Shown here in pieces: positions 50,401-58,539 of a DNA stretch of 58,539 nt. The notes beneath the pieces were generated by a model. That model did not search any database. It saw nothing but the letters and a program-made list of their open reading frames with translations, and had not been told where the DNA came from. Each line of letters begins with the position of its first letter. Position 1 is the first letter of the stretch. Source of the stretch: an uncultured Gammaproteobacteria bacterium (GTDB taxonomy: Bacteria; Patescibacteriota; Patescibacteriia; Patescibacteriales; UBA12465); NCBI GenBank assembly GCA_964408775.1, contig CAYPAP010000003.1, positions 47,615 to 106,153 of the forward strand, written 5' to 3'. The position numbers and the translations under genes are program-made.

Positions 50401-51000
50401 GCTCTAGGCGCTGTTACTGCTAAAGGAAATCTTTCTGGGGAAACTATCAATGTTACAAATAGCGGAGGCGTTTCTAAGAAGGCTACTATTGTTGGCTCTA
50501 AATTAATATCTATTACCAATGCTATGTCAGATGGAACCTTAACTGGCGGCACAGGTAAAATATTAGGTAAGTACACTCTTGTCTTCGATAATGGTGTTAA
50601 CAGAGATAATGCTAATGAAGCTATGAAAGCTGCTTTATCAAGCATTAAGATAACTTTCTCTAACACTGCAACTGTAACTGCTCCTTACTTATACATCGAA
50701 GGTCATGCTTCAAATAAAGCAACCTCAACTGGTGTTGTGAGTGGAAGTGTTACGTTTACAGATAATCTAGCTAACTTAGTAGATAGCGGAGAAATTGACG
50801 GATCTGTTACTATAGTAGTTGCTGGTCAGGTTACTACATCTGGTGAAAACCAATATGTACAAACTTCATTAGCTTCTTTAGGAGGTGACGTTCAATATTA
50901 TGTTGACGTTGATAATAGCTCAGCATCAAATGGAAGTGAGTCTATTACTTCAATGTTGATTAATGTTAACGATGTTAATGGAGCTACTTTGAGTAACTAG
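47449..51000 (+). CDS. Giant secreted surface (S-layer-like) protein with an N-terminal triple repeat module and ~6-7 Ig-like beta modules
   Basis: Signal peptide MTKLRKFFVSSVMVMTVVVMSGLTAPMATNAAAS. T/S/A/G/V/N-rich. By my reading there is no Cys after the signal peptide. ATG 47449 is preferred over the TTG 47359 ORF-track start. Strong terminator downstream. Confidence 0.7.
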   Translation: MTKLRKFFVSSVMVMTVVVMSGLTAPMATNAAASAGDLIKKDGLSAVYYLGEDGKRYVFPNESTYKSWYSDFSGVVTVSADELASYPLGANVVVRPGTFLVKITTDPKVYAVESNGTLRHVQTEADAIALYGANWAQRVIDVADSFFTNYTIGTPLASNEVPEGTLVQKSGEGNIYYYDGTDYRLIEDEVAFLANRFQFGHVITYNNFTASGSTITGAEAGITKTSQSGATGPVVTGSGLVVSLSSNTPASQNIPSGSSVEFLKFNMTAANDGPVNVSSIKLTADGLSDAQNIDSVTFYDGNMKIGTSKNINSDREAIFNFANPIYVAAGTTKTLTVKATIAVNTGTYGLGIVSASDIISSGATVTGSFPINSNLMSAVSASLGTLQVTSATAITNTVSFGEDNVLLSEFALRAGSNEDALLQSITLYNSGTNSNDIVDNLKLIIDGEEVSTGVYADRYVTFTLNNYKIEKSDTISVEVRGDIGTTSNNDTIKMYIKESLDVVAVGATHGFGLTLTNTVLNSAISTVTIQTGDFSIDMDKAITPARDVKADTKDVVLATIKMTSNGENATLTGIANTGFYVTYGTGTTTQMLENVKLVDKSTGGIYDLTAATSSTSTQLTLDDEISLVKGVTKTFELKADILTAAPENQTFAVTLAGSAMTIEGDVSGANISNITPSSVTGSIITVKAASLTVTPTALVSTNVVGGANSVIVYQAKVKAGTADGVKIQSVKLTSATSSAATSAFTDNNITKLSLWLNGKLLKEVSNQIANDSTTTNGTITFSSLNTANYTIPAGMEYDLVVMADFASSLIAGDFKLKVDAPADWTVRSVDGNKVVTPNDGDATSRVVTAATKGTLTVSLVTTDSKASRDSYVLAGSESEAGRYLGELKFVTAKEAIKVETLTLTATSSSSAFNDDIESIKLVTADGVVIASANVTSAGHATFDPFNVVFDADKSTSLFIAVEAKGINVNEDPTSTADHGDHITYALGAVTAKGNLSGETINVTNSGGVSKKATIVGSKLISITNAMSDGTLTGGTGKILGKYTLVFDNGVNRDNANEAMKAALSSIKITFSNTATVTAPYLYIEGHASNKATSTGVVSGSVTFTDNLANLVDSGEIDGSVTIVVAGQVTTSGENQYVQTSLASLGGDVQYYVDVDNSSASNGSESITSMLINVNDVNGATLSN

Positions 51001-51055
51001 TTCTATGTGTAGATAAGTTTTTCTCAATTTTTCTTTAATATAAATTGTAAAAAAA

Positions 51056-51083
51056 GAAGGTCCCCTCGGGGGCCTTCTTTTTT
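51056..51083 (+). terminator. Intrinsic terminator of the surface protein gene
   Basis: gaaggtcccc-tcg-ggggccttc followed by tttttt. Confidence 0.85.
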
Positions 51084-51269
51084 ATTTCAGCCTCTTGCTT
51101 TTAAAAAATTTACCTAAAAATTATTATTTCTTTAAAAAGAATTTATCCCTTTTTTGCTAATATTTTTATTATCTAATAATTAATAAAAATATTAAAGATT
51201 GATTAGAAAAATTAATAAGATTTCTATTGATGATTTTGAGGTTATAAAGAATAAAATAAAAGAGTTTCT

Positions 51270-51337
51270 ATAAAAAAACGACTCCTGCTTCAAAAAAGCA
51301 AGAGTCTCGGAGTTGCATTAATATGCGAACCAATTAT
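51270..51337 (-). ncRNA. Candidate ~68-nt sRNA 'E'
   Basis: Downstream of the minus-strand promoter ttgtat-N17-tatagt (51344-51372). Contains a gcat-atta-atgc hairpin. Ends in a gactcttgctt/aagcaggagtc terminator plus T-run. Confidence 0.45.
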
Positions 51338-51372
51338 GTTTTTACTATAGCAAATTTTTCCAGAAAATACAA

Positions 51373-51565
51373 GGGCAAAAAATACTTAATTATATTAGTA
51401 ATATCTGGTTGTACGAAAAAATCGTACAACTGATTTAAATAAAAAAAAGAGAATGGCGCAACTATCCGGAATTTCCGGACAGTTGGACTTAAAGGTATAA
51501 ATATTTATAGAAAATAAAATAATCTTTCAGCATGCTGTAATTCCCAGCCTACTGAAAAATATTGA
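51373..51565 (+). repeat. Island repeat segment (copy 1) with strong hairpins
   Basis: ttaattatattagtaatatctggttgtacgaaaaaat and tcagcatgctgtaattcccagcctactg recur at 53350-53423. Hairpins gttgtacga/tcgtacaac (51408-51430) and caactatccgga/tccggacagttg (51459-51485). Confidence 0.8.
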
Positions 51566-51576
51566 AAAATAAGCGC

Positions 51577-51605
51577 TTGCTTTTTTATAAAAAATTTGCT
51601 ATAAT
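51577..51605 (+). promoter_or_regulatory. Reiterated island promoter P1 (TTGCTT-N17-TGCTATAAT)
   Basis: The 46-nt block aaaaataagcgcttgcttttttataaaaaatttgctataatattaa is identical at 52310-52355. Related copies lie at 54950-54978 and, degenerate, at 51092-51122 and 53039-53068. Confidence 0.75.
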
Positions 51606-51611
51606 ATTAAC

Positions 51612-51733
51612 AGTGATATTTGTGAGGACATTTGTTCTCTCGCGGTCAAGTTAAAACTGCAGACAAATATCATGACAAAAGAAGTTTTTAGTCGCATCTC
51701 AAGTCTCCCTCGTGGAAGACTTTTTTTGTTTTT
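51612..51733 (+). ncRNA. Candidate sRNA family 1, copy A (~120 nt), antisense to the 3' end of the 167-aa gene
   Basis: Closing stem gatatttgt/acaaatatc, inner stem gcggt/actgc, and the aagtctccc...ggaagactt terminator plus T-run. Homologous to 53075-53193. Overlaps CDS 51688-52191 by ~46 nt. Confidence 0.55.
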
Positions 51734-52191
51734 CTTGAGATTGAACAATTTTTCTTCTTCCAGAAAGGTATAATACTCCAAAAATAGGGGTTATTATTTT
51801 CTATTTTTTTAACTATTATTTTTAATCTTACCTTATCAATAATAGCTATAAAAGCAAAATAAGTAACCCTTTTTTCTTTTTCTTTCCATTCTCCTGATAT
51901 TTTTATTTTTTCTATATTTTCTGACTTCTGAATTTCTTGAAGGGTATGAGACATTTTTATTATTAATGGTGCTAGCTGAATAAATTTTAATCTTATATAT
52001 TGATCATTTTTTGGTCTAGATTTATTCCAAGACTTCATTTTTATATGAGATAATCCTTTGGCGTTAAAGCTCACCAAGGTTTTTAAATATGGGCAATAAA
52101 CTTTCTCTATATTCTTGTAAAACTCCTCAGCCTCTTCTTTAGTGTTTTTAAAAATATCTTCATTAGTATTTGTCTTATTCCTCATAATCAT
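51688..52191 (-). CDS. Hypothetical 167-aa protein (cassette effector 1; possible small nuclease/toxin-like, unassigned)
   Basis: ORF with a near-leaderless start behind shared upstream block U. K/I/E-rich. The C-terminal beta-rich segment YFAFIAIIDKVRLKIIVKKIENNNPYFWSIIPFW only vaguely recalls small RNase toxin folds (speculative). Confidence 0.55.
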   Translation of the reverse strand: MIMRNKTNTNEDIFKNTKEEAEEFYKNIEKVYCPYLKTLVSFNAKGLSHIKMKSWNKSRPKNDQYIRLKFIQLAPLIIKMSHTLQEIQKSENIEKIKISGEWKEKEKRVTYFAFIAIIDKVRLKIIVKKIENNNPYFWSIIPFWKKKNCSISRKTKKVFHEGDLRCD

Positions 52192-52290
52192 ATTTATTAT
52201 ATATAATTAATTTATTGTATCAGATATGTATTAAATATATTTTAAATTAAGTATAAAAATAATATAAATATTTCAATTATTTGGTAAATA
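52192..52290 (-). repeat. Shared upstream block U, copy 1 (promoter/5' region of cassette effector 1)
   Basis: ~95 bp (atataattaatttattgtatcagatatgtattaaat...aagtataaaaataatataaatattt) nearly identical to 52945-53040. On the minus strand a TATAAT lies ~10 nt before the ATG. Confidence 0.85.
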
Positions 52291-52322
52291 TTAAAAATAT
52301 TAAAAAAATAAAAAATAAGCGC

Positions 52323-52351
52323 TTGCTTTTTTATAAAAAATTTGCTATAAT
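52323..52351 (+). promoter_or_regulatory. Reiterated island promoter P2
   Basis: ttgctt-N17-tataat with TGC extension. Identical to P1. Confidence 0.75.
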
Positions 52352-52357
52352 ATTAAT

Positions 52358-52452
52358 ATACATACGAAGAGGGCCTCAAAACATTGGCTTTGCCTAAGTG
52401 GAGACTCCCTTTTTAACAAAAGCCACTAGTTTTCTAGTGGTTTTTGTTTTTT
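52358..52452 (+). ncRNA. Candidate sRNA family 2, copy B (~95 nt), antisense to the 3' end of the NYN gene
   Basis: 5' catacgaagaggg, stem aagaggg/ccctttt, and terminator gccactag-tttt-ctagtgg plus T-run. Overlaps CDS 52426-52944 by ~27 nt. Homologs on the minus strand at 53213-53303 and 55145-55231. Confidence 0.55.
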
Positions 52453-52944
52453 AATTAATTTTAATTTTATTTTATATAAATAATCAAAATATTTTCTACC
52501 TAATTTTTTATATAAAGAAGATGCATATTTTCTGTTTGGAAATAATATTTTTTCAAACTTATCCTTTTCTATTAAATAATTAACCAATTTAATATAATCA
52601 CCATCACCCGAGATCAAAACTATTTTATTAAATATTTCTTTTTCACAGATTTTTTTCATTGCATCAAATATAATATCACAATCAATATTTCCTTTCTTTT
52701 TGCTGGTCATGGATGACAAATGATTTTTAAATATTATTTTGTAATTGCAATTTTCTAATTTGTTATAGATATTTTGATTTAAAATATCCCTATAGCCTAC
52801 ATAATAATAAACATCTTTAATTTTATATTTTTTCTTTAAGTATTTTCTTAATTTTTTAAAATCAATAACCCAAGGTTCATCTTCTAATTTTGTGCCAATA
52901 TATAAGTTTTGACCATCAATAAAACATAGATTATTTTCTTCCAT
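52426..52944 (-). CDS. NYN-domain (LabA/DUF88-like, PIN-related) putative ribonuclease (cassette effector 2)
   Basis: 172 aa. CFIDGQNLY at the N-terminus, GNIDCDIIFDAM, and LISGDGDYIKLV, which are typical NYN acidic motifs. Confidence 0.75.
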   Translation of the reverse strand: MEENNLCFIDGQNLYIGTKLEDEPWVIDFKKLRKYLKKKYKIKDVYYYVGYRDILNQNIYNKLENCNYKIIFKNHLSSMTSKKKGNIDCDIIFDAMKKICEKEIFNKIVLISGDGDYIKLVNYLIEKDKFEKILFPNRKYASSLYKKLGRKYFDYLYKIKLKLIKKQKPLEN

Positions 52945-53040
52945 AATTATTTATTACATATAATTAATTTATTGTATCAGATATGTGTTAAATGAATTTT
53001 AAATTAAGTATAAAAATAACATAAATATTTTTATTTTCTT
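52945..53040 (-). repeat. Shared upstream block U, copy 2
   Basis: Near-identical to 52192-52290 up to the start codon of the NYN gene. Confidence 0.85.
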
Positions 53041-53074
53041 GTTTTTTTATCTAAAAGTGTATTATAATATTAAC

Positions 53075-53193
53075 AGTGATATTTGTAGGGTCTTGGCTCT
53101 CTCACGGTCTTCTAAAACCGTAGCAAATATCATAATAAAAGAAGTTTTCAGTCAGACTGCAAGTCTCCCTCGTGGAAGACTTTTTTTGTTTTT
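53075..53193 (+). ncRNA. Candidate sRNA family 1, copy C
   Basis: Same closing stem, terminator and 3' tail as copy A. The inner stem is acggt/accgt versus gcggt/actgc in copy A, so the first pair changes from G-C to A-U (compensatory). Driven by the degenerate promoter copy at 53039-53068. Confidence 0.5.
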
Positions 53194-53212
53194 CTTGAGA
53201 TTGAGCAATTTT

Positions 53213-53303
53213 AAAAAAATAAAAACCACTAGAAAAACTAGTGGCTTTTATTAAAGAGGATCCTTTGTATTAAAAAATACTTCGGTGCCTTCTTCGTATG
53301 GAT
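53213..53303 (-). ncRNA. Candidate sRNA family 2, copy C'
   Basis: Minus-strand promoter ttgaat-N17-tatagt (53310-53338). 5' ccatacgaagaagg, stem aagaagg/cctcttt, and terminator gccactag-ttttt-ctagtgg plus T-run. Confidence 0.5.
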
Positions 53304-53338
53304 GTTTTTACTATAGCAAATTTTTCCAGAAAATTCAA

Positions 53339-53480
53339 GAAAAAACTGTTTAATTATATTGGTAATATCTGGTGGTACGAAAAAATATTACAATCAGCAT
53401 GCTAGAATTTCCAGCCTACTGGATTAGGGTGTTTTCGTGGTCCAAGTGTACGAAAAAATCGTACGATTAAAATTTTAGCT
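53339..53480 (+). repeat. Island repeat segment (copy 2)
   Basis: Shares ttaattatattggtaatatctggtggtacgaaaaaat and tcagcatgctagaatttccagcctactg with 51373-51565. Has a second gtacga-aaaaa-tcgtac hairpin near 53448-53464. Confidence 0.8.
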
Positions 53481-53573
53481 TATATTTATCTTTGATTTAT
53501 AAAATATTCATCAAGCTTCTGTTACAATAAATCTAGTTTTGAGTAGTTATATATTTTTTTAAAATAATGAAAT

Positions 53574-53624
53574 AAAAAAACCCATCGGGTTCGCATGAGC
53601 TTTACGGCTTAGAGGCGCGATGGG
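53574..53624 (-). terminator. Terminator-like hairpin on the minus strand (possible end of a short divergent RNA)
   Basis: cccatcg/cgatggg 7-bp stem with a 30-nt loop, followed on the minus strand by ttttttt. Confidence 0.35.
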
Positions 53625-53666
53625 CAACGACTCTCATTGTAATCTATTCTTTCAAAAAACACTATA

Positions 53667-53695
53667 TTGACATATTTTATTTCATAAGCTATAAT
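53667..53695 (+). promoter_or_regulatory. Consensus sigma70 promoter of the toxin-antitoxin operon
   Basis: TTGACA-N17-TATAAT (ttgaca tattttatttcataagc tataat), 30 nt upstream of ATG 53725. Confidence 0.75.
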
Positions 53696-53724
53696 AATGA
53701 TAGCTATTATTTTAATATAATTAT

Positions 53725-54570
53725 ATGATTAATAAAAAATCTTTAGGTAACAAAATTAAGGCTTTAAGAGAGTTCGAAGGAATGAGCCAAGAAGATTTGG
53801 CCCAAAAAGTAGAATTATCCAGAGTGGCCATATCTCAAATTGAACAAGGCAATAGAAATGTTGATTTTTTAGAATTAGCCAAAATAGCCCAAGTTTTTAA
53901 ATTAAAAACCGATTATTTTTTAATAGAGGATGAATTGCCCAATATCAAACCAACAAAAGAACCGAATAAAGCTAATAAGTTTAATCCCAAAAAACTCAAA
54001 AATGTTATTTTGTATATTTTAGAAAAATGTGCGGGGAAGCCAAATGTTGGAGAAACGGTATTGTATAAATTATTGTATTTTATTGATTTTGATAATTTTG
54101 AAATTAATGGTCAATCAATTTCTGGGTTAAACTACATCCATTTGCAATACGGGCCAGTTCCAATGGCTTCTTTGTACTCGCCAGTAATAGAAGAGATGAA
54201 GCTTGGGCAAGAGCTAAAAATTATTATTTCTGATTATTTTGGTTTAAAGATAAAGCGGTATATTAATTTAGTTACTCATGATATTGATTCTTTGTCCCCT
54301 AAAGAAACCAAAGTTATTGATAATGTTATCGGGTCTCTTTCTAATATGTCCGCCTCGCAGATAGAAGAATATTCTCATGGTGATGCTCCTTGGCGGTTGA
54401 CCAGCGAAAAAGAGCTTATTCCATATAATCTTGTTTTTGAGCGTCAATCTCCATATGCCAAAAGAAGCGCTGACGATCTTAGATATTTTAAAATGACTGG
54501 AGCTAGGGATATTTTGAATCAATTAGGCCCTATTTCTAAGGCAGAGTATGATTATTACGAAAATCTATGA
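53725..54570 (+). CDS. XRE-family HTH fused to a DUF4065/Panacea (SocA-like) antitoxin domain
   Basis: 281 aa. HTH MSQEDLAQKVELSRVAISQIEQGNR. The C-terminal KLKNVILYILEK...VLYKLLYFIDFDNF...LQYGPVP is typical of DUF4065. Overlaps the toxin gene by 4 nt. Confidence 0.75.
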   Translation: MINKKSLGNKIKALREFEGMSQEDLAQKVELSRVAISQIEQGNRNVDFLELAKIAQVFKLKTDYFLIEDELPNIKPTKEPNKANKFNPKKLKNVILYILEKCAGKPNVGETVLYKLLYFIDFDNFEINGQSISGLNYIHLQYGPVPMASLYSPVIEEMKLGQELKIIISDYFGLKIKRYINLVTHDIDSLSPKETKVIDNVIGSLSNMSASQIEEYSHGDAPWRLTSEKELIPYNLVFERQSPYAKRSADDLRYFKMTGARDILNQLGPISKAEYDYYENL

Positions 54571-54920
54571 TAATAAAAGGTGAGATTAGTTTTGGCGATA
54601 TTGTTTGGGTTGAATTTGATCCTAGCGCTGGGCATGAATATCAAAGTAAAAGACCAGCGATTGTCGTAGAGTCCAATGAACAACTAAAAAAGAAAAATTT
54701 GGTTACCATAATTCCATTAACCTCACAAAGGGACAATCGTATGCCCGATGATATTTTGGTAGAAGCTAGCAGGGAAAATAATTTAATGTTTGATTCAATA
54801 GCAAAAGTATATTGTATAACATCGTTTGATTATGTGAGATTTGAAAAAGTAATAGGAAAAATTAATAAAGAAGTGGAAATAAAAATCAAAGATTATTTTA
54901 AAAAACATTTTGGTCTATAA
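54567..54920 (+). CDS. PemK/MazF-family endoribonuclease toxin
   Basis: 117 aa. GDIVWVEFDPSAGHEYQSKRPAIVV and IIPLTS are typical MazF/PemK SH3-like fold motifs. Confidence 0.8.
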   Translation: MIIKGEISFGDIVWVEFDPSAGHEYQSKRPAIVVESNEQLKKKNLVTIIPLTSQRDNRMPDDILVEASRENNLMFDSIAKVYCITSFDYVRFEKVIGKINKEVEIKIKDYFKKHFGL

Positions 54921-54949
54921 TAATTTTAATTTAGTGTAGAAATAATCCC

Positions 54950-54978
54950 TTGGTTTTTTATAAAAAATTTACTATAAT
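54950..54978 (+). promoter_or_regulatory. Reiterated island promoter P4 (TTGGTT-N17-TATAAT)
   Basis: ttggttttttataaaaaatttactataat matches P1/P2 apart from a few substitutions. Confidence 0.65.
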
Positions 54979-54984
54979 ATACTT

Positions 54985-55144
54985 GTGCTTGTGAGCGAAG
55001 GCTCCGTTCGGCTAAGCTCTTGTCTAAAGAGCTATAAGCCGAAAGCAAGCACAATATTTACTATCTAGCTTATACCTGTCCCTTCTGTCGCTTCGGCGTC
55101 AGAACGCGAGGTCATTCTTTTATAGGGTGGCCTCTGCTTTTTTT
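54985..55144 (+). ncRNA. Candidate ~160-nt sRNA 'D'
   Basis: 9-bp closing stem ttgtgcttg/caagcacaa, inner hairpin ggctaagctctt/aagagctataagcc, ctgtcgc-ttcg-gcgtcag (UUCG loop), and terminator gaggtca/tggcctc plus T-run. Confidence 0.5.
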
Positions 55145-55231
55145 AAAAAACAAAAACCACTAGAAAAACTAGTGGCCTTTATTAAAGGGTCTCCCTAGGT
55201 AGTTAGCCGTTCGGATATCCCTTCGTATTGC
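55145..55231 (-). ncRNA. Candidate sRNA family 2, copy D'
   Basis: The minus strand reads aatacgaaggga...gggagaccctttaataaaggccactag-ttttt-ctagtgg plus T-run. Stem gaaggg/cccttt. The promoter is less clear (taatat -10 only). Confidence 0.4.
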
Positions 55232-55456
55232 TTGGTTATATTAAATAAAAGAACAACCACGTATACCTTATGGCACGTGGTTGTTCTTTTTTGCTATTGT
55301 CTCGAGATTGATTTTATAAAAAATACTATTTTGAAGATGTCAATTTTTGTCAACTCCCTTTTTTATTATTTTTTATTTTTGAAAGAACGAATAGATAGTT
55401 ATTGTTAAAATCTTTGAGACCTATTGTTTTTAATCTAAGAGCTAAATAGCTATAAA

Positions 55457-55810
55457 TTAATCATCCTTATTATATATCTTCCTGAGCTTCGCCAGTCCTC
55501 GATGAATTTGCACTGAAATTGTTTTTTTGGAACTTCCAGTTATAGCCGAAATCTCTGCTAGAGAAAATTCCTGTAAGTAACGCATTTTGATTACTTTCTG
55601 ATATTTCATAGGAAGTTGAGCAACTAAAAAAATGGCCTGCTCGCCATCTAAAATATCAATCATTTTTTCTGAATTGTCTTCGCTCAGCTCAAACCCCTTC
55701 TTCGCCAGATCTTCTAATGAGATAGTTTTCTTTTTCCGGTACTCATCAATAATTAAGCCCCTCAGGACATGGTAAAGAAAGCTTTTCATGACGTTAACCT
55801 TATTTCCCAA
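55457..55810 (-). pseudogene. N-terminally truncated ECF sigma factor remnant (region 4 plus the tail of region 2)
   Basis: 117 aa. FLYHVLRGLIIDEYRKKK (end of region 2) and FSLAEISAITGSSKKTISVQIHRGLAKLRK (region 4). Regions 2.1-2.3 are missing compared with 45435-46007. Confidence 0.6.
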
Positions 55811-55827
55811 TTATTGGACAGAAGGTT

Positions 55828-56061
55828 ATGATTTTAAATGCTCGTCAAATTCATTTTGATAAAAAAAACACGACTACCAAAGTATTTCCACCAATAATTC
55901 TTCTAGCCATAGAGGATATTACGGATATTATGCAGATTGCTGAAACGCTGGCTAGTCACACTCATAAATTAGAGGCTAAGTTAGCCGAGCAATCTGAAAA
56001 ATTGGATTCAAATATTAAAAAACTACAAAAGGAGATTGATAATCTTAAAAAGAAAAAATAA
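55828..56061 (+). CDS. Hypothetical coiled-coil small protein
   Basis: 77-aa ORF with C-terminal LEAKLAEQSEKLDSNIKKLQKEIDNLKKKK. Weak support. Confidence 0.35.
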   Translation: MILNARQIHFDKKNTTTKVFPPIILLAIEDITDIMQIAETLASHTHKLEAKLAEQSEKLDSNIKKLQKEIDNLKKKK

Positions 56062-56082
56062 TTAATAATTAATATAACGCAT

Positions 56083-56328
56083 ATGGGATTAATAATTTGG
56101 ATCATTTTCGGAGGCTTAGTCGGTTGGATTGCCTCATTAATAATGAAAACTGGCGACCAGCAAGGTCTTCTATTGAACATTGTTGTCGGTGTAATCGGTG
56201 CCGTTATTGGCGGTTGGATTATGAGTGCGATTGGGAAGAGAGGGGTTGATGGTTTCAACATTTATAGCTTTTTAGTCGCTATTCTTGGTTCAGTTATTTT
56301 AATCTGGATAGTTAAGCTTTTAAGATAG
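56083..56328 (+). CDS. GlsB/YeaQ/YmgE-family (transglycosylase-associated) small membrane protein
   Basis: 81 aa. IIWIIFGGLVGWIASLIM...LLLNIVVGVIGAVIGGWI is the typical pattern. Confidence 0.8.
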   Translation: MGLIIWIIFGGLVGWIASLIMKTGDQQGLLLNIVVGVIGAVIGGWIMSAIGKRGVDGFNIYSFLVAILGSVILIWIVKLLR

Positions 56329-56431
56329 TGAATCGAGATTTAGTAGATAGGGATAAATTAGTGACAAAGCGCGAGGCTGTTCTTTTTTAGAACGGTCTCT
56401 TATTTTTATGTATTTATCCCCAGTCTTACTA

Positions 56432-56460
56432 TTGACTTTATTTAGTTAATGTGTTATAAT
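56432..56460 (+). promoter_or_regulatory. Sigma70 promoter TTGACT-N17-TATAAT
   Basis: ttgact ttatttagttaatgtgt tataat. Confidence 0.7.
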
Positions 56461-56466
56461 TATATT

Positions 56467-56739
56467 ATGATTTAGTTCTTTTGCCAAACCCAAACAAACC
56501 AAAACCAAAACCCAAGAGACATGAAGAGAAATCGATTTTTTTCAAAGATCATCAGGGAATTTCTGATCTCCGGATACAAAATAATTTGTATGACCGAGAG
56601 GTCAATCTGCCTGGGACATGGCAGAAAAAGAGCCCTTTTTGAAAGGGAGTCAGGGGACCTGCTTTGCGAGTGGGGAATCCTTTGACAAGGCAAAGACGAG
56701 AAAAACAAAGGGGCTGATTTAAACAGCCCCGCTTTTTTT
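56467..56739 (+). ncRNA. Candidate ~270-nt RNA (or small-protein mRNA) with a C/A-rich 5' region and multiple hairpins
   Basis: Promoter-to-terminator unit (ggggctg-atttaaa-cagcccc plus T-run). 5' ccaaacccaaacaaaccaaaaccaaaaccc. Hairpins atacaaa/tttgtat, gacc-gaga-ggtc, ctgcc/ggcag, cccttt/aaaggg and ctttgc/gcaaag. Contains a possible 39-aa ORF (56521-56640). Confidence 0.5.
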
Positions 56740-56828: not shown

Positions 56829-58539
56829 ATGAAAGAGGTATTGATACAGGAAAAAGGTATTGAAGGAAACAATAATTCTAAAGACTTAGCTACTCAGGAG
56901 AGAGAATTATTTTTTAATATAGAAAAAAGTAGAGGAGAGTTATCCGAAGAAGATTTTCAATTAATACTAAATAGATTATTTGAGCACTCTGTTGACGATG
57001 CACTCAAATTTTTGAATCAGTTAAATTTAAGCAGAGATCAGTTTGCGAAGGCCTTGGTTAAGCCTTTGTTTTTTATAAAACATCCGAAGATAGCTTCTTG
57101 TTTATTCTCAGAAATAAGTAGTAATGAAAAGTATATAGAAAGAGGAGAGTTATTGGATACAATGAAAGAGGGGGGTAATAATTTTAAAAAAATAGAAAAA
57201 AAAGGATCAGCAATCAGTGATGAATATTATCATCAACAAGATGAATATAAGCAGGCTAGCTACCAAGTTAAAAAATATATCGATAAGATAGATGATTATT
57301 ATTCTGTTTTCTTTGATGTTCAAAAAGATGTTAAATTAGAGGAATCTGGTGAAAAATTTAAAAATGATTTAGTTTTAGATCAAATTTTTTCGTCTAAATT
57401 GGCGCTAGAGAACCATTATTATAGTGGAGAGATATTAAAAATCTTATTTAAAAATTTGATTCATGAAGACTCAAAAAAAATTAGTAAAATAGCTGAAGAG
57501 CAATTTAAAAATAATAGTGATTTACAGGTTAAATACAATTCTGATTTTTCTCGATATTTTAGTGCTCTAGAAAGGGGGTCTGCTCCAAATAGAGATATAG
57601 TTTTAGAATATTTAAAACAAAATAAGGCCTTAGTCCGAGAGATTAAAAATAATAATTTATTGGACCAGGAAACAGTTAATAGTATAGTGGAGCAGTATGA
57701 TTTAGGCGATGTTATTAATAAAAATAGGGTGGACAGGGCTAAGTATAAACCCCTAGGATTGGTTTATAATTTTAGGAAGGAATTGATTGAGAAAAAAATA
57801 ATTAATAAAATTCAGGAATCCTTAAAAAGAAGATTCTCAGGAAGAGATTTGAAAATAATATTAGATCCGGAAAGCGGTTCGTATGTTGTGGATGGTCTAG
57901 ATGATAAAAATAATGAATCTTTAGATAAAAAAGAGTCCAACATTGAGACTGTTCTTTACACTTTCAGCAACAGAATTCGTTTTTCCTTAGAGGAGTTTAA
58001 TATTATTAACAATCAATTCTATTTTAAAGCTAAAGAAGCTGGAAGGCAATTTGTAATCGGACCAAATGGAGAAAAAATTGGTAGCGATTATGATTGGGTT
58101 TGCCCGCCTAAAGACATTAATAGTCAAGTCTATTTTACAGCTCAAGAAGCTGAAAAGCATTTTATAATCGGACCAAATGGAGAAAAAATTGGTGGCGACT
58201 ATGATTTTGTTGGCGAACCTAGAGAGATCAATAATCAAGTTTATTTTAGAGCCCAAGAAGCTGAAAAGCATTTTATAATCGGACCAAATGGAGAAAAAAT
58301 TGGTGGCGACTATGATTTGGTTTATGAGCCTAAAGACATTAATAATCAAGTTTATTTTAGAGCCCAAGAAGCTGAAAAGTGGTTTGTAATCGGACCAAAT
58401 GGAGAAAAAATTGGTGGCGGTTATGATTATGTCAGCGACCCTAAAGATATTAATAATCAAGTCTATTTTAAGGCTAAAGAAGCTGGAAGGCAATTTATAA
58501 TCGGACCAAATGGAGAAAAAATTGGTGGCGACTATGATT
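56829..58539 (+). CDS. Large protein (5' partial view, runs off the window) ending in tandem 37-aa repeats (WG/KWG-repeat-like)
   Basis: The frame is open from ATG 56829 to the window end by my own translation. It is absent from the ORF track because there is no in-window stop. Repeats read YF.AQEAEKHFIIGPNGEKIGGDYD.V.EPKDINNQV. Confidence 0.75.
   Translation, partial: MKEVLIQEKGIEGNNNSKDLATQERELFFNIEKSRGELSEEDFQLILNRLFEHSVDDALKFLNQLNLSRDQFAKALVKPLFFIKHPKIASCLFSEISSNEKYIERGELLDTMKEGGNNFKKIEKKGSAISDEYYHQQDEYKQASYQVKKYIDKIDDYYSVFFDVQKDVKLEESGEKFKNDLVLDQIFSSKLALENHYYSGEILKILFKNLIHEDSKKISKIAEEQFKNNSDLQVKYNSDFSRYFSALERGSAPNRDIVLEYLKQNKALVREIKNNNLLDQETVNSIVEQYDLGDVINKNRVDRAKYKPLGLVYNFRKELIEKKIINKIQESLKRRFSGRDLKIILDPESGSYVVDGLDDKNNESLDKKESNIETVLYTFSNRIRFSLEEFNIINNQFYFKAKEAGRQFVIGPNGEKIGSDYDWVCPPKDINSQVYFTAQEAEKHFIIGPNGEKIGGDYDFVGEPREINNQVYFRAQEAEKHFIIGPNGEKIGGDYDLVYEPKDINNQVYFRAQEAEKWFVIGPNGEKIGGGYDYVSDPKDINNQVYFKAKEAGRQFIIGPNGEKIGGDYD
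58020..58539 (+). repeat. 111-bp tandem coding repeats (at least 4.7 copies, continuing past the window)
   Basis: Units start at 58020, 58131, 58242, 58353 and 58464, with high nucleotide identity. Confidence 0.9.

Follow-up and report, generated by a model that had tools for sequence, protein, structure and literature searches.

A family of short structured RNAs encoded convergently with LabA-like NYN nuclease genes

The 58,539-nucleotide (nt) stretch of DNA analysed here (contig CAYPAP010000003.1, positions 47,615 to 106,153; hereafter the window) holds three copies of a small RNA gene, called B, C′ and D′. We find that all three represent a large family of RNAs that are short, structured and under selection. 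In convergent orientation, the RNA obligately accompanies genes encoding NYN proteins, with which it forms a compact, mobile two-gene module. This convergent partnership is our main finding; the preliminary description of the window had mentioned it as a side remark, namely the overlap of copy B with the 3′ end of an NYN gene, an overlap that indeed spans the last 27 nt of that gene.

A structured RNA at the 3′ end of NYN genes

The association was first seen with a five-sequence profile and by eye. Eighty metagenomic NYN loci were gathered through alignment of the NYN protein (47–84% protein identity), and a covariance model, R1, was built from 84 distinct sequences. R1 matches 77 of the 80 loci; the remaining three are cut by the contig end, so that the RNA is present in 77 of the 77 loci whose downstream DNA is long enough, and none of these yielded an NYN gene lacking its RNA. 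Note that seed members match R1 by construction and that its E-values are rough. Across 94 sources, R1 gave 94 matches, all of them located at the 3′ end of an NYN gene and on the opposite strand, an extra match in locus L065 being the partner of a second, tandem NYN gene. Throughout the family, the RNA finishes close to the NYN stop codon: at one extreme its 3′ end stops 12 nt before reaching this codon, at the other it extends 32 nt into the gene. The contigs of the closest homologues (63–97% identity) each carry a family member convergent with NYN as well.

The unit common to the metagenomic loci comprises a TTGACA-N17-TATAAT promoter, a short leader and then about 55 nt, and the family consensus reads AUCAAKACGAAAAGGGAUCCGAACGGCUAAUUACCUAAGGAGCCCUUUUCUUUU. 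In its common, ~55-nt form, the RNA has a leader ending in ACG and an 8-bp stem with a U-run around a conserved module (CCGAACGG, a 7-nt loop and CCUAAGG). The contexts of the two-gene module are variable: it occurs in tandem copies (two in L017 and two in L065), with PemK/SocA, Bro-N/RhuM and integrase genes among its neighbours. The tandem NYN paralogues of L065 are 59% identical, and their RNA cores are almost the same.

The partner of copy B is an intact gene coding for 172 aa (52426–52944, minus strand), whose product matches the Pfam NYN family (PF01936; E=1.2e-18, 68.4 bits versus a cut-off of 24.2) and is a member of the LabA-like NYN proteins (PF01936, COG1432; 2qip). More than 1000 homologues were found at E<1e-10, the named ones coming from Patescibacteria, Kaiserbacteria and Falkowbacteria, and the acidic residues D10, D88, D90, D114 and D116 are invariant in 30 NYN sequences. 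These names, together with the low G+C content, suggest that the window derives from a bacterium of this kind. The structure model (mean predicted local distance difference test score, pLDDT, 80.7) is closest to 2qip, a protein of unknown function that is the top match both by sequence and by fold, and then to T5 flap endonuclease. No match to the NYN protein was found among cultured-phage and plasmid records. According to the 2017 classification of the PIN superfamily (PMC5499597), the LabA-like NYN group has no known function, no described RNA partner and no nuclease studies. Our literature searches on an NYN–RNA partner, on NYN proteins in Patescibacteria and on structured RNAs of these bacteria returned nothing relevant. 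Likewise, the RNA matches no Rfam 15 family at or near the gathering score: only tRNAs pass in the window, nothing relevant appeared at E≤10 over positions 50900–56500, and the same is true of the viral loci and, at E≤1, of 15 loci that carry canonical copies.

The RNA structure was tested on a sequence-only MAFFT alignment. It consists of (i) an 8-bp stem, P1 (GAAAAGGG/CCCUUUUC); (ii) a 1×1 loop followed by stem P2 (UCC/GGA); (iii) an internal loop with GAAC opposite UAA; and (iv) a 3-bp stem, P3. Paired cells amount to 89.2% versus 83.1% in shuffles, both sides change in 12 of the 14 pairs, and the covariation score is 0.259 versus 0.166, a value reached by 0 of 500 shuffles, with all slid controls lower. 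The stems are thus supported by covariation, and RNAalifold run on the canonical rows recovers P1 and P2 unaided. In a second subtype, where the hairpin is framed by GGGUCCCUG and AUGGCCCCC, eight different apical stems occur, all of them pairing and closed by GNRA or UUCG loops; in L030, the apical stem is deleted altogether. Several unpaired bases are near-invariant (both A of GAAC, 87–89%; UAA, 81–90%), and the C25–G55 pair is present in 100% of the rows. The inner module CCRAAMGG-N5–9-CCUWAGG is found in 58 of the 84 distinct sequences. A UAA/GAN sequence signature is likewise present in 58 of the 84 distinct copies, D′ having UAG and B and C′ deviating; here the GAAC 5′ strand faces the UAA 3′ strand between Watson–Crick pairs, the likeness to the UAA/GAN motif being one of sequence signature only. 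This internal loop motif reportedly occurs in ribosomal RNA, RNase P and introns. Two other likenesses were dropped: a K-turn or sarcin–ricin reading of the internal loop, since the required G·A tandem or AGUA was absent by eye, and a likening of the 5′ box to the sarcin–ricin loop, since the box lies in a stem and not in a loop.

A TTGACa-N16–18-TATAAT promoter with at least 10 of 12 matches precedes 54% of 83 copies, as against 1.7% of shuffles. The distance from the end of the −10 box to the A of ACG is 12 nt in 48 copies and 14 nt in 22 (70 of the 83 together). The U-run is better on the RNA strand, the GNRA loops read correctly on that strand only, and P1 contains 43 G·U cells versus 19 A·C cells, 16 of the latter being located in rows judged by eye to be out of register. 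The element does not fit a plain intrinsic terminator: a hairpin and a U-run are present, but the promoter and the loop bases are conserved. Since the hairpin is terminator-like in both directions, the NYN mRNA probably ends in the complement of the RNA hairpin.

At the other end of the gene, a −10-like TATAAT box lies 5–12 nt before the ATG and no Shine–Dalgarno sequence is found (upstream of NYN in L039, L048, L053, L062, L063, L078, L085, L086 and others); judging from these features, NYN mRNAs seem to be leaderless. The NYN frame often runs into the RNA hairpin (e.g. in P0032, P0049, P0056 and P0115), protein tails such as KRKGLLR and KKGPLR corresponding to the reverse-complement reading of P1–P2. 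The sequence CCTTAGGTAATTAG has stop codons in all three frames.

The copies in the window and their lineage

The three copies lie where the preliminary description had placed them, B on the plus strand (52358–52452), C′ and D′ on the minus strand (53303–53213 and 55231–55145, respectively), and they have in common the 5′ box, closing stem, linker and identical terminator that it attributed to them. The box ATACGAAG is located at 52362–52369 (plus), 53292–53299 (minus) and 55221–55228 (minus); it matches five times in the window versus 1.28 expected, a count reached by no shuffle, and three of these five matches are inside the copies. The terminator CCACTAG-N5-CTAGTGG is found twice in the window versus 0.04 expected, copy B having the N4 version, and the CCACTAG-N4/5-CTAGTGG hairpin occurs nowhere in the window outside the three copies. 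The linker of all three is TTTAAYAAAR. Every copy folds into a closing stem around an insert of about 30 nt, followed by the terminator hairpin (z-scores of −5.2, −6.6 and −4.0 against dinucleotide shuffles). The closing stems are GAAGAGGG/CCCUUUUU in B, GAAGAAGG/CCUCUUU in C′ and GAAGGG/CCCUUU in D′; the replacement of a G–C pair by an A–U pair between B and C′, noted earlier, is real. When run on the window with filters off, the covariance model found only B, C′ and D′ (38.8, 39.9 and 45.9 bits, respectively), the next-best match, at 20 bits, being an ordinary terminator at 51049–51087. Further homologues do exist, since the model finds relatives at the metagenomic NYN loci and the stem covaries; nor is the similarity confined to the terminator, for relatives retain the 5′ box, the stem and the inner module together with another terminator (L008:1496–1590) or with none, as in most metagenomic copies.

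In the lineage of the window, AAU or AAC follows P1 in place of the U-run, and a second hairpin (GCCACUAG…) is added as a terminator. The identical GCCACTAG terminator is a lineage-specific add-on, absent from most family members. A terminator-only scan of one genome per species gave 14 loci, 13 of which were set aside as unrelated Firmicutes-type terminators without the 5′ box, L008 being the only true relative; the terminator alone is thus not diagnostic.

Copies B and C′ have the shared promoters attributed to them, with a −10 box that in both cases ends 10 nt before ATACGAAG. The promoter of B (52323–52351, plus) is composed of TTGCTT (52323–52328), N17 and TATAAT (52346–52351), preceded by TG, and the predicted transcript, of about 95 nt (52358–52452), would start 7 nt after the −10 box. 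In its core hairpin (52366–52414), P1 encloses a diverged inner module (CUC..GAG, a GGC-UUU-GCC hairpin and UAAG). The second hairpin (52415–52452), GCCACUAG-UUUU-CUAGUGG plus a U-run, is terminator-like on both the plus and the minus strands and contains the NYN stop codon. Orthologues of B adjoin NYN genes in L015, L016, L017, L018, L019 and L028. The inner module of B has diverged, yet compensatory changes are observed among its orthologues in L015, L017, L019 and L028 (GGC/GCC to GGU/ACC, and AC/GU to GC/GC).

Copy C′ is an orphan without NYN gene (core 53253–53295; terminator hairpin 53218–53252). Its promoter (53310–53338, minus) reads TTGAAT-N17-TATAGT with TG before the −10 box, and it is convergent with an RNA of another type, referred to as "family 1" (53073–53195, plus). 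The orthologue of C′ in L020 stands beside an intact NYN gene, whereas that in L008 faces an NYN remnant of about 40 codons. A 590-bp stretch holding C′ and this family 1 RNA (53043–53631) is missing from the same-species contig L015: by blastn, window positions 52316–53042 correspond to L015 4462–3736 and positions 53632–55054 to L015 3736–2312, with 96–97% identity. Relative to L015 and L016, the insertion is located between the NYN gene and an HTH–SocA/PemK pair, and it comprises the two convergent small RNA genes and about 290 nt of further non-coding sequence.

Copy D′, the other orphan, closely resembles the canonical form. It has no consensus promoter (best match, 7/12), lies directly after another hairpin (55262–55295), and its conserved inner-loop UAA has become UAG. 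Given the lack of a consensus promoter and the UAA-to-UAG change, D′ is probably a decaying copy. Its orthologues in L017 (4632–4685) and L024 come with a promoter and an NYN gene coding for 165 aa, and the one in L008, which has no NYN gene, combines a consensus promoter and the box AGACGAAG with another terminator. L008 (CAYYLI010000063.1) is an AT-rich contig of 3.5 kb that carries a related island and is filed under an uncultured Gammaproteobacteria bin; the island is also found in contigs with NYN relatives labelled Patescibacteria, and L008 is possibly mis-binned.

Possible roles of the RNA

The reading that we favour, still tentatively, is that the RNA is an antitoxin-like antagonist of the NYN nuclease and that its folded core is bound by the NYN protein. 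The RNA would be transcribed from its own strong sigma-70-type promoter opposite NYN and would end at or inside the NYN 3′ end. The NYN protein would be harmful or need restraint, and the RNA would be made in excess as its antitoxin-like partner, the core (P1, two C–G pairs, the conserved GAAC/UAA internal loop and a short stem closed by a 7-nt loop) being recognized by the protein as an inhibitor or a decoy substrate. Through the shared bidirectional terminator, the RNA would also complement the NYN mRNA at its 3′ end, possibly adding an antisense layer. We lean toward recognition by the protein because the loop bases are conserved far beyond what pairing in cis needs, being near-invariant while the NYN proteins are only ~50% identical; because the core lies outside the likely overlap in the window lineage, where NYN has its own terminator-like hairpin and where, if the mRNA ends there, the core is not part of the overlap and yet undergoes compensatory changes; because the L065 paralogues share one RNA core; and because tetraloops can replace the apical loop. 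An antitoxin-like asymmetry is also observed: RNAs that are orphan or linked to a remnant exist (C′, D′ and two in L008), and an NYN gene without RNA was not found.

RNA look-alikes are found in phage-like contigs. The 22-nt inner module is present in four IMG/VR contigs of this kind (L108:3204–3229, L109:6572–6624, L110:2808–2829 and L111:8658–8679), none of which gave an Rfam match. In L109, an 84-aa membrane open reading frame (ORF) has a full family member (44.5 bits) for its 3′ hairpin, the neighbouring genes being, by eye, tail-fibre-like and HNH endonuclease-like. In L108, L110 and L111, the module alone is found inside other RNAs; in L111, a promoter-driven RNA about 110 nt long has it as its first hairpin. 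Searches of viral contigs with the promoter-plus-box pattern and with the full canonical pattern gave no matches. These modules could reflect mimicry, targeting, or a module that is read by another factor.

Several observations weigh against an antagonist bound by the nuclease. The convergent, overlapping layout is more simply explained by antisense pairing than by protein binding, and the layout that defines type III toxin–antitoxin systems is not present. With a mean column identity of 58%, NYN is unusually well conserved for a toxin. The paralogous modules of L065 are not insulated from one another, and the phage-like contigs, one with a full copy and three with the inner module only, all lack NYN. 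Since the loci were collected through NYN, they test whether NYN implies the RNA and not whether the RNA implies NYN. RNAalifold predicts nothing on the whole model-fitted alignment and works only without the divergent B-type, C-type and L022 rows. Folding energy does not distinguish the RNA strand from its complement (−16.5 versus −16.2 kcal/mol, p=0.5), so that the strand assignment rests on the promoter, the U-run, the G·U excess in P1 and the GNRA loops.

A strong rival is antisense pairing at the terminator common to both genes, which may act together with protein recognition. In its pure, type I-like form, the RNA would pair with the NYN mRNA 3′ end and terminator hairpin from a loop–loop contact, leading to cleavage, decay or a block of the stop-codon region, with no protein recognition; in this form we consider it rather unlikely. 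The layout is always convergent, with the RNA 3′ end near or inside the NYN end, and a hairpin that is terminator-like on both strands means that the transcripts would complement each other. YUNR, a motif said to be present in the recognition loops of many antisense RNAs, is part of the common 7-nt loop, YUAAYUR, and if the NYN mRNAs are leaderless, as they appear to be, their 3′ end would be the sole pairing site. Complementarity in cis does not require, however, that unpaired bases stay near-invariant across deep divergence, and the GNRA or UUCG tetraloops of subtype 2, or the missing apical stem of L030, would make poor kissing partners. The position of the core outside the likely overlap in the window lineage also argues against it, as does orphan C′, which retains promoter and structure in the absence of any NYN mRNA with which it could pair. 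Alternatively, NYN could depend on the RNA for a housekeeping or defence function, the RNA serving as its cofactor, scaffold or natural substrate. Such a ribonucleoprotein would fit an NYN protein that is highly conserved and widespread in Patescibacteria, an RNA core more conserved than the protein, and the recurrence of the same 22-nt module in other RNA contexts of phage-like contigs, as for a generally recognized module. We nevertheless hold it to be quite unlikely: the two-gene module is accessory (truncated in L008, two copies in L017 and L065, mobile or toxin–antitoxin genes as neighbours), RNA copies come and go between strains, as shown by the 590-bp insertion with C′ that a same-species contig lacks, an orphan RNA would have no use as a cofactor where NYN is missing, and there is no variable guide-like segment.

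That the element is only a bidirectional NYN terminator, with an incidental promoter-like sequence in AT-rich DNA and a functionless short transcript, is very improbable, given that, in 83 copies, the sequence and the distance of the promoter are maintained to a degree well beyond that of shuffles, that loop bases are conserved, that the G·U versus A·C excess in P1 favours the RNA strand, that orphans with their own promoter exist and that an ordinary terminator of the window scores only 20 bits; the hairpin with its U-run, a reverse complement that folds equally well, and the full copy of L109, located in sense orientation at the 3′ end of a phage gene, are what such a terminator would explain. 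The preliminary description had suggested that the variable insert of about 30 nt could act as a targeting segment. The three window copies do differ strongly in their inserts while sharing their flanks, but a scaffold RNA guided to host or phage targets in this way is one that we hardly credit, as orthologues in other genomes keep the same insert (C′ in L008 and L020; D′ in L008, L017 and L024) and the inserts align to one conserved module across the family. The L008 orthologues of C′ and D′ in particular indicate that the inserts are inherited and not hypervariable, with similarity extending beyond the terminator. A check for complementarity found none above chance within the window (best, 12 nt, E~0.08), phage metagenomes not having been searched for targets. 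The "variable insert" is a diverged version of the conserved module, not a targeting segment.

Returning to the antitoxin-like reading, among its closest known counterparts are the type III toxin–antitoxin systems (ToxIN, CptIN, TenpIN), with which the module would share a small structured RNA, proposed to be in excess and to neutralize a neighbouring ribonuclease, and does share a compact two-gene organization in variable contexts. Phage PhiTE carries pseudo-ToxI, an RNA look-alike of type III, and phage-borne look-alikes are found here too. In type III systems, the antitoxin is an array of tandem direct repeats that precedes the toxin gene on the same strand, with a terminator between them, whereas the RNA described here is in all 94 matches a single unit, convergent with the protein gene and under a promoter of its own. 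The protein has an NYN/PIN-like fold and not that of the ToxN/AbiQ endoribonucleases. Type III RNAs bind and inhibit the toxin and are processed by it; RNA binding is proposed here, the conserved loop bases being an indirect hint. The type I systems with a convergent 3′ overlap (par RNA I/RNA II of pAD1, txpA/RatA and bsrG/SR4 of Bacillus subtilis) resemble the module in their shared bidirectional hairpin and strong RNA promoter, and the predicted RNA is indeed encoded antisense to NYN and overlaps it (27 nt of coding sequence for B). They differ in that their toxins are small hydrophobic membrane peptides, whereas NYN is a soluble alpha/beta nuclease of 165–172 aa, and the conserved unpaired bases seen here are not required by pairing in cis. 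A nuclease-like toxin of more than 100 aa under a cis-encoded antisense RNA exists in Escherichia coli, SymE/SymR, but SymR overlaps the 5′ end and start codon of its target, whereas the overlap here is at the 3′ end of a seemingly leaderless mRNA.

If the antitoxin reading is true, it adds a toxin–antitoxin architecture in which a convergent, single-unit structured RNA faces an NYN nuclease. It is conceivable, though doubtful, that the module represents a new class of RNA-antitoxin or defence module across bacteria of the candidate-phyla-radiation type, with a layout that is neither type I nor type III, the phage look-alike RNAs being counter-measures or targets of the nuclease. Candidate-phyla-radiation bacteria have tiny genomes and depend on hosts, and to our knowledge their small-RNA biology is almost unexplored. 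The LabA-like NYN family is very large, and the existence of an obligate RNA partner offers a first tangible entry point to the role of one of its clades. The RNA has a clear consensus, ~84 distinct sequences, support from covariation and a defined partner protein, and it is directly testable in a laboratory host.

Neighbouring features

A comparable layout involves ORF167 (51688–52191, minus; no Pfam or PADLOC match), which is convergent with a promoter-driven family 1 RNA (51610–51735, plus) overlapping its 3′ end, the two spanning positions 51573–52191. The second family 1 copy (53073–53195; region 53044–53195) has no gene partner. In L017, three such modules follow one another, namely NYN165 with a D-type RNA, an ORF167 homologue with a family-1-like RNA (L017:4752–5310) and NYN172 with a B-type RNA; see also L024:5–684. 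This shared layout may be a general way for these reduced genomes to pair small RNAs with accessory proteins.

Two further units in the window have an island promoter and their own terminator: one at 51268–51373 (minus), 88% identical to L008:3285–3445, and one at 54954–55140 (plus), whose 5′ part (54950–55056) is 78% identical to L008:2160–2260, where it faces an ORF167 homologue. It seems that promoters, RNAs and genes are shuffled between islands. Positions 53725–54920 hold a type II toxin–antitoxin pair, also present in L015, in which an HTH_3 plus SocA/Panacea antitoxin gene (281 aa) overlaps a PemK/MazF toxin gene (117 aa) by 4 nt. In L020 (1–1050), a reverse-transcriptase gene (RVT_1) is located 2 kb from the NYN/C-type RNA module. 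The inner module (e.g. 55196–55207, ACGGCTAACTAC, minus) recalls ACGGCUAACUAC, a sequence conserved in 16S rRNA immediately upstream of the 515 primer site; the resemblance would be a lead for mimicry of a substrate, and it may be due to chance. Finally, positions 57987–58500 consist of four tandem repeats of about 111 nt, which contain four similar 33-aa ORFs (MEKKLVA…) on the plus strand and one repetitive 168-aa ORF on the minus strand.
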